Below, in pieces: positions 53,139 to 57,835 of a stretch of DNA of 64,000 bases. The DNA is from a virus, in the IMG/VR virus record IMGVR_UViG_3300044613_003178, one strand, 5' to 3'. The position numbers and the translations under genes were made by a program. The notes under the pieces were generated by a model. That model had not been told where the DNA came from. It did not search any database and saw only the letters and a list, made by a program, of their open reading frames with translations. Within the stretch, counting starts at the first letter, position 1; each line of letters opens with the position of its first letter.

Positions 53139-53579
53139 TTAGTTTGTTCCTAGTGTTTTTTCTGTTATTATTTTAAATTCCCAATTTTGTTTTTTAGCAA
53201 ATTCCGAAGCAGCATTCCACTTAGAATTATTTATTAACCAAGTTTTACTTTCTTTTATAAATGTTCTTTGCTTCTTGTTATCTGACTGTTTAGGTTGAAT
53301 ACATTGTCTAGATGGCTTGATTTCTACAAGGTAAACCTTCTTTTCCCCTGTTTTTTCTTGCACTTCTATGACAAAATCAACAAAATACCTATGAACTCTG
53401 TTATCTATGGGCGAAATATATGGTATAGCAAGTTCTTCTGATGACCATTTCAAAACATTATCGTTTCTATCACAAAAAACCATAAATCTTCTCTCTAATA
53501 GAGAGCGATAAATGATGTTGTTTGAGTTACCAACATACTTTTCTGGGTTTTCTGGGTGATATTTACCTTTGTATGGCAT
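53139..53579 (-). CDS. gp4: Head completion nuclease gp4 (TnsA-N-like PD-(D/E)xK fold)
   Basis: Motifs YKGKYHPENPEKYVG, IIYRSLLERRFM, WSSEE, HRYFVDF, VEIKP, KWNAA, FKIITEK. Confidence 0.95.
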   Translation of the reverse strand: MPYKGKYHPENPEKYVGNSNNIIYRSLLERRFMVFCDRNDNVLKWSSEELAIPYISPIDNRVHRYFVDFVIEVQEKTGEKKVYLVEIKPSRQCIQPKQSDNKKQRTFIKESKTWLINNSKWNAASEFAKKQNWEFKIITEKTLGTN

Positions 53580-53615
53580 ATAAATAAAAATGAACAGAAT
53601 TCTTTCCTATTTATC
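53579..53615. promoter_or_regulatory. Overlapping divergent late promoters: TATAAATA (+, 53579-53586) and GATAAATA (-, 53608-53615)
   Basis: Both motifs sit at the strand switch between gp4 (-) and gp48 (+). Confidence 0.6.
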
Positions 53616-54885
53616 TAAAAAAATGTTAATTAAAAAAGAAAACATAGCAAACTACTCAAAACTAGGTTCTTGGACTCCTGAAGAAGTTTCAGATCCTAAT
53701 CCACCAGTTTCAATACCAGATTTGAACTCAGTACCAGCAAATTATGAATCTCTGATAGGAGATACTTTGGATGCTGCCGGTAGAGAAAAAACTCTATCAA
53801 ATAAAGAAGCATTAAATTTTATTGAAAATAGAGCCAAAGCACTAGAACAAAAATTACCAACTGTAGATTCAGATATCATAAAACAATTATCATTTAGTGG
53901 TGATACTAGCAAATTAAGAGATTGCATGGTAATAGTTCTCTATTCACCATCAAGCAATGAAAATCCAAATTTAAGCAATTCGCCACAAGAATTAAACAGA
54001 AAGGGTGCGGAATTTGCAACAGTTGGAATAGAAAAAATTGGTGGTTATATTGATGCAATACCAGAACAAAAAATAACAAATGAATCTACTGCACTTGATA
54101 AATTAGGAGTATTAACAACAGGTCTTTTAAAGGGTGGTAAACAAGCTGTTGAAAATTTTAATAAAACAAAAGAATTTACAAGTAATAATATTGAATCATT
54201 AAATAAAAATTTTTATACTGAAGGTGATACCGATTCACCAAATAAAAAGAAAACAATATTTTTACCATTGCCAAAACAAATAAACGATATACACAGTCAC
54301 AATGTTGATGGGTTTTCAAACAATCCGATAATACCAATAGGAGGTGTAGTATCCGGTCTTTTAAATTTAATTACTGGACCACTATCAGGAACACCTAATT
54401 CCAGAGCAGGTATTGGTAAAGCTTCTACTAATGTTGCTGAATTTCTTGCTAATAATGCTCAATTAGCAACAAGGAAAACAATTAATCCCGCTACAGAAAC
54501 TCTTTATAGAAGTCCAAATTTAAGAAATTGGCAATGGAATATCGAATTCCAGCCAACAAGCAAAGAAGAAGCAGATCAGTTCTTAAAAATAGTAGAAATG
54601 TTAAAACAACACTCATACCCAACACAAGATCTAGGTGGTATTTTATATACTTTCCCAGGTACTGTAGACTTTTATTTTAGAATAAATGGAGAAGAATCTA
54701 AAGTTCTACCAAAAAGTCTCCAAAAATGTTTCTTAAAAAGTGTACAATTAGATTATACACAACAAGGATTTTATGCACACTTTAAAGACGGTAATCCAGT
54801 TGTAATTACATTGACTCTAGATATAGCAGAAACAAGACTACTTGATAGAAACGATTTGGAAAATGCATTTGGTAAACCCGATTAA
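53590..54885 (+). CDS. gp48: Baseplate tail-tube cap, gp48-like (likely start ATG 53623)
   Basis: Motifs IFLPLP, INPATETLYRSPNLR.W.W..EFQPTSKEEA, FPG, CFLKSVQLDYT, DGNPV.ITLTL...ET. Confidence 0.85.
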   Translation: MNRILSYLSKKMLIKKENIANYSKLGSWTPEEVSDPNPPVSIPDLNSVPANYESLIGDTLDAAGREKTLSNKEALNFIENRAKALEQKLPTVDSDIIKQLSFSGDTSKLRDCMVIVLYSPSSNENPNLSNSPQELNRKGAEFATVGIEKIGGYIDAIPEQKITNESTALDKLGVLTTGLLKGGKQAVENFNKTKEFTSNNIESLNKNFYTEGDTDSPNKKKTIFLPLPKQINDIHSHNVDGFSNNPIIPIGGVVSGLLNLITGPLSGTPNSRAGIGKASTNVAEFLANNAQLATRKTINPATETLYRSPNLRNWQWNIEFQPTSKEEADQFLKIVEMLKQHSYPTQDLGGILYTFPGTVDFYFRINGEESKVLPKSLQKCFLKSVQLDYTQQGFYAHFKDGNPVVITLTLDIAETRLLDRNDLENAFGKPD

Positions 54886-54895
54886 GGAGTAGATT

Positions 54896-55612
54896 ATGAT
54901 TGATTTGAAAAATTTAGTATCACTTCCAACATACACAACAACAGTACCATCAACTGGTAAAAAGGTTTCATTTAGACCCTTTGTTGTAAAGGAAGAAAAA
55001 ATATTATTGATTGCTTTGGAATCAAAGGATGATGAACAAATTATGGGAGCAATGAAAAGTATATTCAATACATGCTTTTCTGAAAAATTAAATATTGAAG
55101 AAATGCCATATTTTGATGTTGAATATCTCTTTATCCAATTAAGAATGAAATCGATGGGCGAAGTTGTAGAAATAATTGTTAAAGATTCAGAAACTAATGA
55201 AAAATTTGAAACAGAAATGAAACTTGAAAATGTAATAGTTAAAAATCTTCCAGAAAAAACATCAACTACTATAAAGTTGAATGATAATATGGGTGTTATT
55301 ATGAAATATCCATCTATAAGTGAATTTATAGAGATAGAAAAAAATGAAAAATCAAGAACAGAAACCATGTTTAATTTGATAGTGTCTTGTATAGATAAAA
55401 TTTTTACAAAAGATCAAGTAATAAGTACAAAAGAAAAAAGTAAACAAGAAGTTATAGATTTTTTAGAAAATCTACCAAAAGAAATGTTTTTAAAAATTAC
55501 ACATTTTTTTGATAAATTACCAAGAGTGACATATGAAGAAGAATTTGTAACTCCAACAAAAGGAAATAAAATACCCATAATTATAAATGATTTTAAATCT
55601 TTTTTCGAATAA
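54896..55612 (+). CDS. gp26: Baseplate hub assembly protein gp26
   Basis: Motifs LPTY...PSTGKKVSFRPFVVKEEKILLIA, FDVEYLFIQLRMKSMGE, MKYPS; ends SFFE. Confidence 0.93.
   Translation: MIDLKNLVSLPTYTTTVPSTGKKVSFRPFVVKEEKILLIALESKDDEQIMGAMKSIFNTCFSEKLNIEEMPYFDVEYLFIQLRMKSMGEVVEIIVKDSETNEKFETEMKLENVIVKNLPEKTSTTIKLNDNMGVIMKYPSISEFIEIEKNEKSRTETMFNLIVSCIDKIFTKDQVISTKEKSKQEVIDFLENLPKEMFLKITHFFDKLPRVTYEEEFVTPTKGNKIPIIINDFKSFFE
55600..55606 (+). other. Candidate -1 ribosomal slippery site T TTT TTC
   Basis: An X XXY YYZ heptamer in the gp26 frame, one codon before its stop. The -1 frame is open into gp51. Confidence 0.7.
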
Positions 55613-55638
55613 CGCTCTCGGTTGAAAGTTTGAAAATA

Positions 55639-55809
55639 ATGTACGAAACAAATTATGCATTAATCGAGAGCGAAAAGTTTAATTTAGAAGAAATAGAAAA
55701 TATGTTGCCTTGGGAAAGAAGAGTATACATTGGATTGCATATAAAGAATATACAAGAACAAAAAGAAAGAATGGAACAAGTTAGAAGAAAAAATAAAATC
55801 AAAGGATAA
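55639..55809 (+). CDS. gp51: gp51-like hub assembly chaperone (56 aa from ATG; frame open from 55597); not in the ORF track
   Basis: MYETNYALIESEKFNLEEIENMLPWERRVYIGL matches the gp51-type motif Y.TNF.L.....SL.EIENM.PWER.IY. Confidence 0.88.
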   Translation: MYETNYALIESEKFNLEEIENMLPWERRVYIGLHIKNIQEQKERMEQVRRKNKIKG

Positions 55810-55813
55810 CTAG

Positions 55814-57835
55814 ATGCCATTAAAAGAAGATAGAGATAAAATTTTAGAAAGTGTAAGTAAAAAAGTTGACGGGATTTCTAAAGTTATGGAATCTCTATAT
55901 GATATTACTAAAAAACAAAATGAAGTAACATCAGATCAAGTTGCAAAACAAGAAGAAACTGAGTCAGAATCAAAAGTATTATTAAATGAAGATAAAAAAT
56001 ATAGAATTAAAACAACTAAGTTATTAGAGGAAATAAGAGATAAAGAAATAAATGTTTCAACGGAGTCTGGTTTGGGTTCTTTGATTAGTGGAATTACTGA
56101 TTTATTGGGTGGATTGGGTATTGCCGGATTGGCAGGATCATTAATTGGGTTAACTGCTGCAATAAATGAATTAAAAAATTGGTTTGATGGTAAAGAAACA
56201 CCAGTAATTAATAAGCCAGGAATGGCTGCAGGAACATCATCAGCAGCAGATATTGGTGCATCTGGTGCTGCAACTAGAGCAACTGCAAAAACGGTTTCAA
56301 CAAAAACTTTAAAAAATTTAATACAAGGAAAACCTTTATTTTCACCTTTACCTGAAAGAGAATTTTCTAGAATTGCAGGAGAAAAGGCAAAAACTGCTAT
56401 TACAGGTAAAAAACCAATAAGTGGAATTGGACCACAACAAAAAGCAACTCCATTTGAGAGAGTAAAAGCAGGAACAAGTGCAGTAGGCAGAGCGACAGGT
56501 GCTGCAACTATGAGTGCAGTTTCTGCTGGTAGATCTGCATTTTTAGGAGGAACTGCTCTTGGTGTTTCCACTCTTTTTGATCCAAATTTACAAAATGTAC
56601 CATTTGCAGATAGATTAAAACAAGCAGGTGTTGCTTTTGGTAAAGGCTCGTTATCTGCTGGTTTAGTAGATCTTGGTATCTCAACCACAGCAAATGCTTT
56701 TTCTGCAGCTGGTTTACCATCTTTAGCAAGAGCTGTTCCTATTGTTGGATTAATGTATGGTGCTAGTGAGGCATTATATAGAGCATACACAGCAAGTGAT
56801 TGGTCTAGAGGCATTGCGGAAAGTGAAATGTTAGATCAGGGAAGAATGGATTTAGAAAATACTAATAAGCAAGTAGAAATTATGGGTCAAGAAGCATTGA
56901 AATTGGCAAATGAAGGAAAAATAAATGAAGCAAAGATCGTAGAAGAACGAGCAGTAAAGATGGTAGAAAATGCTCAAAAGAATTTTTTTGCTTTACATAA
57001 TATTGTAAAAACACATGAAAAATTAAATAATGTAGTAGATATGGATCTCGCTTGGGGTAAAGGAGAAAAATATTCAATACAAGATGTTAATACAATTTTA
57101 GAAACATTTAAAGATGCAAGAAATATTAATAATTCCGATGATCTCTATAAATATTACCTCAAAAAAGGTGCGGATAAAAAAATAAATTCTGTTTTGAATA
57201 GAATTGGTTTTGATAATGTTTTTATGCTATTAAAAGAAGCACCAGAAATACTAAAAGATTATAATACAAATCTTTGGGCAAGACCAAAGGAATATTTTAA
57301 CAAATATGGTTCAGAATTAATTAGTGCTGCACAAAGAGAAGAACAAGAAAGAAAACACAGAGAAGCTGTTAACGAAGCATATGGTCAGTATGCTGGTATG
57401 ATGGCAAATGAAGGAATCATTGAAGGAAGTAGATTTGGTTCATTTATAGTTGCTGGTGAAAATAGAACATCAGAAGCAGTTGTATCAACTAAACCAAATG
57501 CAGTAACAGAAAGTATTGGTAATAACATCTACAAGATAATAAAAGAAAATGCGTTAAATGATATAACAGCAACCCAAAGACAAACTATGGTTTTGGGTAC
57601 AGTGTTAGCAAATACTGTTCAAGAATATAATGATGCATATAAGATAGCACCTTTATTATCTGGTTCATCCAGTTCATCAAATCCAATCATAGTCAATAAC
57701 ATGATTGGTGGTATGAATAGTGGTAGACTATTAGAAACAAATGGACACTTCAATTCTGCTGGAACTATACCAGATAAACATGAAAGTGTACTTGAAAAAG
57801 TTTATATGGACTATTATAAAGCAGCTATGTTATAA
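55814..57835 (+). CDS. Putative tape measure protein (gp29-like, 673 aa)
   Basis: Helical and Ala/Gly-rich with hydrophobic segments and a VAGE...EAVV motif. Follows gp26/gp51. Confidence 0.65.
   Translation: MPLKEDRDKILESVSKKVDGISKVMESLYDITKKQNEVTSDQVAKQEETESESKVLLNEDKKYRIKTTKLLEEIRDKEINVSTESGLGSLISGITDLLGGLGIAGLAGSLIGLTAAINELKNWFDGKETPVINKPGMAAGTSSAADIGASGAATRATAKTVSTKTLKNLIQGKPLFSPLPEREFSRIAGEKAKTAITGKKPISGIGPQQKATPFERVKAGTSAVGRATGAATMSAVSAGRSAFLGGTALGVSTLFDPNLQNVPFADRLKQAGVAFGKGSLSAGLVDLGISTTANAFSAAGLPSLARAVPIVGLMYGASEALYRAYTASDWSRGIAESEMLDQGRMDLENTNKQVEIMGQEALKLANEGKINEAKIVEERAVKMVENAQKNFFALHNIVKTHEKLNNVVDMDLAWGKGEKYSIQDVNTILETFKDARNINNSDDLYKYYLKKGADKKINSVLNRIGFDNVFMLLKEAPEILKDYNTNLWARPKEYFNKYGSELISAAQREEQERKHREAVNEAYGQYAGMMANEGIIEGSRFGSFIVAGENRTSEAVVSTKPNAVTESIGNNIYKIIKENALNDITATQRQTMVLGTVLANTVQEYNDAYKIAPLLSGSSSSSNPIIVNNMIGGMNSGRLLETNGHFNSAGTIPDKHESVLEKVYMDYYKAAML

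Follow-up and report, generated by a model that had tools for sequence, protein, structure and literature searches.

A single tail-assembly gene of an uncultured marine T4-like phage very probably gives rise to two protein products, and sequence comparison across its relatives argues that the means is most likely a programmed -1 ribosomal frameshift on the heptamer T_TTT_TTC, stimulated by an RNA stem, which would yield proteins of 238 and 304 aa. The gene lies in a window of 64,000 nucleotides (the whole stretch of DNA that we analysed) from IMG/VR virus record IMGVR_UViG_3300044613_003178. We propose that most ribosomes would reach the stop codon of the gp26-like gene and release the 238-aa short form of a chaperone, while a minority would pause on the heptamer (55600-55606), held there by a 13-bp stem that starts 6 nucleotides downstream. 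The two tRNA-Phe would then re-pair one base back, from UUU UUC to UUU UUU, reading would resume with CGA ATA ACG..., and a 67-residue helical tail would be added to complete the 304-aa long form. By analogy with G/GT of phage lambda and E/E+E' of phage P2, the short and long proteins may act in a fixed ratio as tail or hub assembly chaperones. T4 carries this pair as two paralogous genes, whereas the phage studied here and most other T4-like lineages would carry it as one recoded gene. The occurrence of the shift, its efficiency and the binding partners of both proteins are what we infer from this locus.

The anatomy of the junction is plain in the nucleotide sequence (Table 1). The gp26-like ORF encodes 238 aa and ends AAA TCT TTT TTC GAA TAA. 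An initial annotation of this DNA had pointed to an in-phase T TTT TTC at this end, and we find it where it was placed: in the gp26 frame the pattern X_XXY_YYZ is made up of T55600, TTT at 55601-55603 and TTC at 55604-55606. The -1 frame behaves as had been described as well, in that it is shut by TAA at 55594-55596, opens just 5' of the heptamer and leads into the gp51-like ORF; it stays open from 55597 to TAA at 55807-55809. Its translation from the heptamer on is FFRITLSVESLKIMYETNY..., so that the predicted long form (TAC-NC, the equivalent of T4 gp51) consists of gp26 residues 1-237 followed by the 67-codon tail, 304 aa in all. The predicted trans-frame junction reads ...KSFF-RITLSVESLK..., and the corresponding junction peptide would be SFFRITLSVESLK. 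The 0-frame stop stands exactly one sense codon past the heptamer, both in the window (55607-55612) and in 44 of the 55 distinct junctions compared below, and the six bases that follow the heptamer conform almost everywhere to (C)GN ATA R, which the -1 frame translates as R-I or R-L.

Table 1. Features of the gp26/gp51 junction and the gene that follows it, in window coordinates.
Feature	Position	Strand	Basis
gp26-like gene, short chaperone form (TAC-N)	54896-55612	+	PF12322 and phrog_150 matches; stop TAA at 55610-55612
Slippery heptamer T_TTT_TTC	55600-55606	+	In the gp26 frame, covering its terminal Phe-Phe pair
Spacer GAATAA, 6 nt, including the 0-frame stop	55607-55612	+	Window sequence; stop placement compared over 55 junctions
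13-bp stem, 5' arm (CGCUCUCGGUUGA)	55613-55625	+	RNAfold; RNAalifold on 9 relatives
13-bp stem, 3' arm (UUAAUCGAGAGCG)	55660-55672	+	RNAfold; RNAalifold; rare codons
Predicted -1 extension, C55606 read twice, 67 codons RITLSV...IKG plus TAA	55606-55809	+	phrog_634; hhalign to T4 gp51
ATG, gene callers' likely gp51 start; internal, non-conserved Met	55639-55641	+	Alignment of 55 tails
673-aa gene with Gly/Ala-rich hydrophobic stretch, tape-measure candidate	55814-57835	+	Position and size only

Conservation of this arrangement is the strongest evidence that it matters to the phage. Scanning IMG/VR gave 80 loci with relatives of gp26 at 30-90% identity, 76 of which also carry a gp51-like frame; these 76 contain 55 distinct junctions. 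The gp51-like frame is offset from gp26 by -1 in every locus that holds both genes (76 of 76). An in-phase heptamer of the T_TTT_TTY type is present in all 55 junctions, as TTTTTTC in 29, TTTTTTT in 25 and TTTTTTA in one. A codon with T in third position (AAT, GAT, AGT, TCT, ACT, GCT, CAT or TTT) always precedes it, and the first Phe codon is TTT without exception. This NNT plus TTT combination is kept even in GC-rich lineages (for example, L067 and L032), where TTT makes up 13-24% of Phe codons. Given the codon usage of each locus, meeting it in every lineage has a chance of about 1e-10.6 when 27 clusters at 70% identity are counted, and of about 1e-5.8 with 14 clusters at 50% identity, probabilities that assume independent clusters and are hence upper bounds on significance. 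Since the protein itself also constrains the terminal FF codons, the nucleotide-level signal comes from only two synonymous sites; at these, the heptamer is conserved in phase beyond the need of the protein, which is a mark of frameshifted chaperone genes.

Amino-acid conservation extends across both frames. From FF on, the -1 peptides of the 55 junctions align without a gap to the consensus FF.I.L.H..L..YY.TNFALMQ.HKYSL.ELE.M.PWER.VY. An alignment of this kind had been proposed in the initial annotation as a check, and it bears the proposal out: the heptamer, the -1 offset and the residues upstream of the gp51 Met are all conserved among the 55 junctions, while the start codon is not. Random frame offsets and synonymous disruption of the heptamer had been named there as outcomes that would speak against frameshifting, and neither occurs in the 76 loci or their 55 junctions.

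The fate of the start codon bears directly on the simplest alternative, in which there is no recoding: gp51 would be a separate 56-aa protein made from the ATG at 55639, or by re-initiation after the gp26 stop, and the T run would merely encode Phe-Phe. This ATG is present in the window and, at the same position, in nine of the ten closest relative loci, and database records do list gp51 as a separate gene. An AGGA-like motif accompanies about half of the window's long ORFs, against a background of 5%, and our motif scan agrees with the initial annotation that no such Shine-Dalgarno-like motif lies upstream of ATG 55639, although half of the window's genes have no obvious one anyway. Among the 55 junctions, however, only 20 have an ATG within codons 3-16 of the -1 frame, at varying positions, and the other 35 have none there; one locus, L071, lacks any ATG, GTG or TTG in the first 22 codons past the heptamer. 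The equivalent of ATG 55639 is absent from L005, L006 and all cyanophage-like loci. Peptide conservation instead sets in at the heptamer, 13 codons before ATG 55639, and thus begins at the shift site and not at a start codon. As is characteristic of frameshifted chaperones, the 3' end of the first ORF is overlapped by the second, which lies in the -1 frame and has no conserved start of its own. Independent expression would also leave unexplained why the offset is always -1 and why the synonymous sites of the heptamer are fixed here, yet free in T4 gp26, and it would cut the tail to 31 aa in phage P-SSM7 and to 26 aa in Aeromonas phage 65, with conserved residues missing from both. We regard separate translation of gp51 as highly improbable.

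A second line of evidence for the programmed shift comes from the RNA downstream. RNAfold predicts a 13-bp stem 6 nucleotides past the heptamer, formed by 55613-55625 and 55660-55672. RNAalifold on nine relatives from the window's clade keeps all 13 pairs in nine of nine, two of them with compensatory changes; the one change to these rare codons, from TCG to TCA in L010, is matched by a change from ATC to ATT in the other arm. The stem exceeds other stretches of its own loci in stability by 2-3 standard deviations (clade z of about -2 to -3, with z = -2.3 for the window). Both arms are written in rare codons for a genome of 31.7% GC: the 5' arm uses CTC (4% of Leu codons) and TCG (4% of Ser codons), and the 3' arm uses ATC (10%), GAG (12%) and AGC (5%). 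The stem is thus under selection at synonymous sites in the window's clade. Outside this clade, hairpins are short, lie in a shifted register and do not clearly exceed local controls in stability; for the cyanophage-like clade, we found no single conserved hairpin, the registers differing between loci and the stability being unremarkable against local controls.

The stem also helps to separate a ribosomal event from transcriptional slippage, in which the polymerase would add one U at the T run so that in some mRNAs the tail is already in frame for a ribosome that reads normally. Slippage would have an identical protein outcome, and the site is a pure homopolymer of six, seven or nine T. Efficient polymerase slippage, however, usually needs about 8-9 identical bases, and the run is just six T in the window and in 29 of the 55 lineages. 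It begins at the exact position of the heptamer in 54 of the 55 junctions, with no upstream extension, and always lies in X_XXY_YYZ phase. A slipping polymerase would call for a long homopolymer and for neither phase nor downstream structure, and this is not the pattern that we see. Moreover, the RNA 3' of the run has not yet been made when the polymerase copies the run, so that a stem held by synonymous-site selection 6 nucleotides downstream could act on the ribosome alone, which favours a ribosomal event. The PRFect authors, as far as their summary goes, take the title of Vladimirov et al. (2022) to refer to two separate T4 genes, which also counts against slippage. We consider transcriptional slippage unlikely.

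The reading of the broken frame as an artefact, either a homopolymer assembly error or a decaying gene, is refuted by the comparative data, and we accord it a negligible probability. Homopolymers are error-prone in some sequencing chemistries, but the same frame arrangement recurs in 76 independent metagenome loci and in six cultured, finished phage genomes, with amino-acid conservation in both frames.

If the -1 shift does occur, the two products correspond closely to two known proteins of T4. The gp26-like protein matches Pfam family PF12322 (T4_baseplate) over its full length (E 3.2e-51, profile positions 2-219 of 219) as well as phrog_150 (E 3e-55), and it is the one PF12322 copy in the 118-kb record. 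The ORF from ATG 55639 matches phrog_634, 'baseplate hub assembly catalyst' (E 3e-16), and also the last 35, C-terminal positions of phrog_150, an early sign that some members of that family hold both parts in one chain. In T4 gp51 (249 aa), residues 1-201 form a full PF12322 domain (E 4e-52) and phrog_150 spans residues 3-248; in hhalign, a profile built from the -1 tails aligns to gp51 residues 200-243 (E 1.3e-5), and the match begins at the shift-site Phe. T4 gp51 is therefore collinear with the predicted 304-aa product, as T4 gp26 is with the 0-frame product. Within the window, a gp51-type tail becomes contiguous with the PF12322 domain only by way of the -1 shift. These sequence relationships support the view that T4 gp51 has its true orthologue in the long form, and T4 gp26 in the short form.

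The likeness to T4 thus takes in PF12322, phrog_150 and phrog_634, together with a long form built of a gp26-like domain plus a tail of about 45 aa. The difference is one of genetic layout: T4 has two separate genes, on opposite strands and with no heptamer in gene 26, whereas here there is one recoded gene. Because T4 gp51 has a gene of its own and T4 gp26 lacks the heptamer, T4 offers a natural control in which the synonymous sites are free. The T4 gp26 protein (L084:3803-3850) also ends in ...EFFELL, coded GAG TTC TTT. In our tree, T4 gp26 pairs with the N-terminal domain of gp51 (support 91/72), but both are on long branches; a duplication within the T4 lineage would fit this pairing, which is suggestive at most. 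Both T4 proteins are classed as hub assembly chaperones by Leiman et al. (2010), who note that gp51 is needed for assembly yet absent from the T4 particle.

The predicted fold of gp26 adds a further link to tail assembly. An AlphaFold2 model of the protein (pLDDT 86.8, pTM 0.82), compared with 48,161 PDB chains, gave 3FGX, 3KLU and 2OB9 as its top three matches, at Z 7.7, 7.7 and 7.1, values of 7-8 that fall below a caution line of 8 and can reflect a common arrangement; the next unrelated chain scored Z 4.0. These three entries are the three solved phage tail assembly chaperones (PMC9603447), from HK97 (2OB9), Bacillus subtilis YqbN (3KLU) and Rbstp2171 (3FGX). The matches involve gp26 residues 1-96, with 86-88 aligned residues that take in nearly the whole of each target chain at 3-18% identity. 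The likeness is limited to this part of gp26, and the solved chaperones have no counterpart of residues 97-238. A Foldseek search of the same model against the PDB returned nothing at E <= 0.001 and placed the HK97 chaperone at rank 28, and a profile search with gp26 against PDB sequences found no match. With moderate confidence, and on the strength of the model, we suggest that the N-terminal domain of gp26 has a tail-assembly-chaperone fold. The tail added by the -1 extension is modelled as helical (AlphaFold2, pLDDT 82), and a fold search with the 69-aa tail model gave generic helical matches only, all at Z < 5.

The system most readily compared with this one is that of phage lambda, in which gpG and gpGT arise by a -1 frameshift at G_GGA_AAG (PMC5009743, summarizing Levin 1993 and Xu 2004, 2013 and 2014). 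In both, one gene would supply a short and a C-terminally extended form through a -1 shift near its 3' end, both forms are expected to be missing from the virion, and a large gene comes next, here the tape-measure candidate. The two differ in that they share no sequence similarity, gp26 is about twice as long and has an extra C-terminal domain, the heptamer is another one and T4 genetics assigns the gp26/gp51 pair to assembly of the baseplate hub. The initial annotation had held that gp26 (238 aa) and a gp26-51 fusion of about 304 aa form such a G/GT pair; the conservation of the junction, the collinearity with T4 gp51 and the predicted fold all support this. Given the junction anatomy and the fold match of the N-terminal domain, the analogy is well founded in architecture and fold, and it would extend to binding partners by inference.

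The proteins E and E+E' of phage P2 are made on a T6G run, and P2-like prophages have T7G or T7C at this place (PMC3931495, citing Christie 2002). P2 resembles the present phage in having a contractile tail, a -1 shift on six or seven T near the end of the short gene and an E' without a ribosome-binding site of its own. It differs in that its proteins belong to another, much smaller family, and the parts of PMC3931495 available to us describe no comparable downstream stem.

Cultured phages carry the same site. We find NNT TTT TTC, one further codon, a stop and then FFR[IL].L in the -1 frame in six of them, namely S-PM2, P-SSM7, Vibrio phage nt-1, Aeromonas phage 65, Cronobacter phage LPCS28 and Stenotrophomonas phage Moby. 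No joined CDS for gp26/gp51 appears in any of their six records; the tail is annotated as a separate gene of 55-57 aa, as a stump of 31 or 26 aa, or as nothing at all. In the P-SSM7 record (L082:3194-3381), the tail stands as a 31-aa gp51, in that of Aeromonas phage 65 (L088:3206-3372) as a 26-aa hypothetical protein and in that of Cronobacter phage LPCS28 (L086:3239-3401) as an empty gap, and in all three the -1 frame is open right from the heptamer. A variant of the site occurs in Serratia phage phiMAM1 (Ackermannviridae, L087:3215-3440), whose gp26 homologue ends CAG GTT TTC ATC TGA. The site, G_GTT_TTC, departs from the canonical X_XXY_YYZ, and the -1 frame continues into a gp51-like tail (...MMPWHLDLM...). 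For Vandenendeviridae and Andersonviridae, a 2025 paper describes GTTTTT as invariant at the corresponding place.

Several earlier observations fall into place if the shift occurs. Sullivan et al. (2010) found that gp51 of cyanophages and marine vibriophages is without its first ~200 residues, and left this unexplained; the missing residues would come from gp26 through the shift. Atkins et al. (2016) described G-T frameshifting as conserved in long-tailed phages 'except T4'. T4-like phages would now follow the pattern general among long-tailed phages, in which one locus supplies both a short and a long tail chaperone. The practical value lies mainly in correcting annotation at this locus, since many records of T4-like phages show the tail as an orphan of 26-57 aa or leave it unannotated.

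The central idea appears to have been published already. A direct literature search for gp26/gp51 frameshifting returned no report, but Vladimirov et al. (2022), a study of tail chaperones of T4-like phages that we know through papers citing it, is credited in the 2025 paper with poly-T signals for a -1 frameshift in TAC-N genes of T4-like phages. The summary given with PRFect has T4-like phages carry a short gene and a longer, fused one. The initial annotation had presented the site as newly extending this mechanism to T4-like phages, a claim to novelty that Vladimirov et al. (2022) undercuts to the extent that these citations portray it. A broader proposal, which we hold to be possible but rather doubtful, is that the one-gene T_TTT_TTY frameshift, with clade-specific stems, is the ancestral and prevailing state in Kyanoviridae, many Straboviridae and related marine phages, that T4 genes 26 and 51 derive from it through duplication and a hard-wired fusion, and that hundreds of deposited 'gp51' genes are mis-annotated fragments. 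This would be new if Vladimirov et al. (2022) covered only the two genes of T4 and poly-T tracts.

The next gene starts 4 nucleotides past the gp51 stop, as the initial annotation had it, and encodes a 673-aa protein that we consider a candidate tape measure, the arguments being its position and its size. Neither Pfam nor PHROG has a family that matches the protein. BLASTP and local hhalign, the latter run with clade alignments against proteins of T4, nt-1 and Aeromonas phage 65, revealed no similarity to T4 gp29; a comparison with nt-1 ORF206 gave nothing usable, and neither did an all-against-all phmmer search. A lead from the ESM Atlas towards Tape_meas_lam_C scored only 0.89, and a search for phrog_1283, the family of T4 gp29, came up empty both in the record that contains the window and in five complete relatives. 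A large gene nevertheless occupies the same position in 46 of the 55 distinct junctions, at lengths from 334 to more than 900 aa, some cut by the end of the locus. These genes fall into at least nine clusters that have no sequence or profile similarity detectable to one another or to T4 gp29. The large gene that follows the chaperone locus is thus syntenic, roughly comparable in size among the loci, and an unusually fast-evolving tail gene.

On the other side of gp26, a 431-aa protein encoded at 53590-54885 (+) matches the baseplate tail tube cap (phrog_230, and weakly Pfam T4_tail_cap) only from residue 196 on, and its first ~195 residues have no family match. Further upstream, the gene at 53139-53579 (-) encodes a head completion protein of the gp4 type (phrog_218), which also matches PF08722, a TnsA-like endonuclease N-terminal domain, at E 9e-22.
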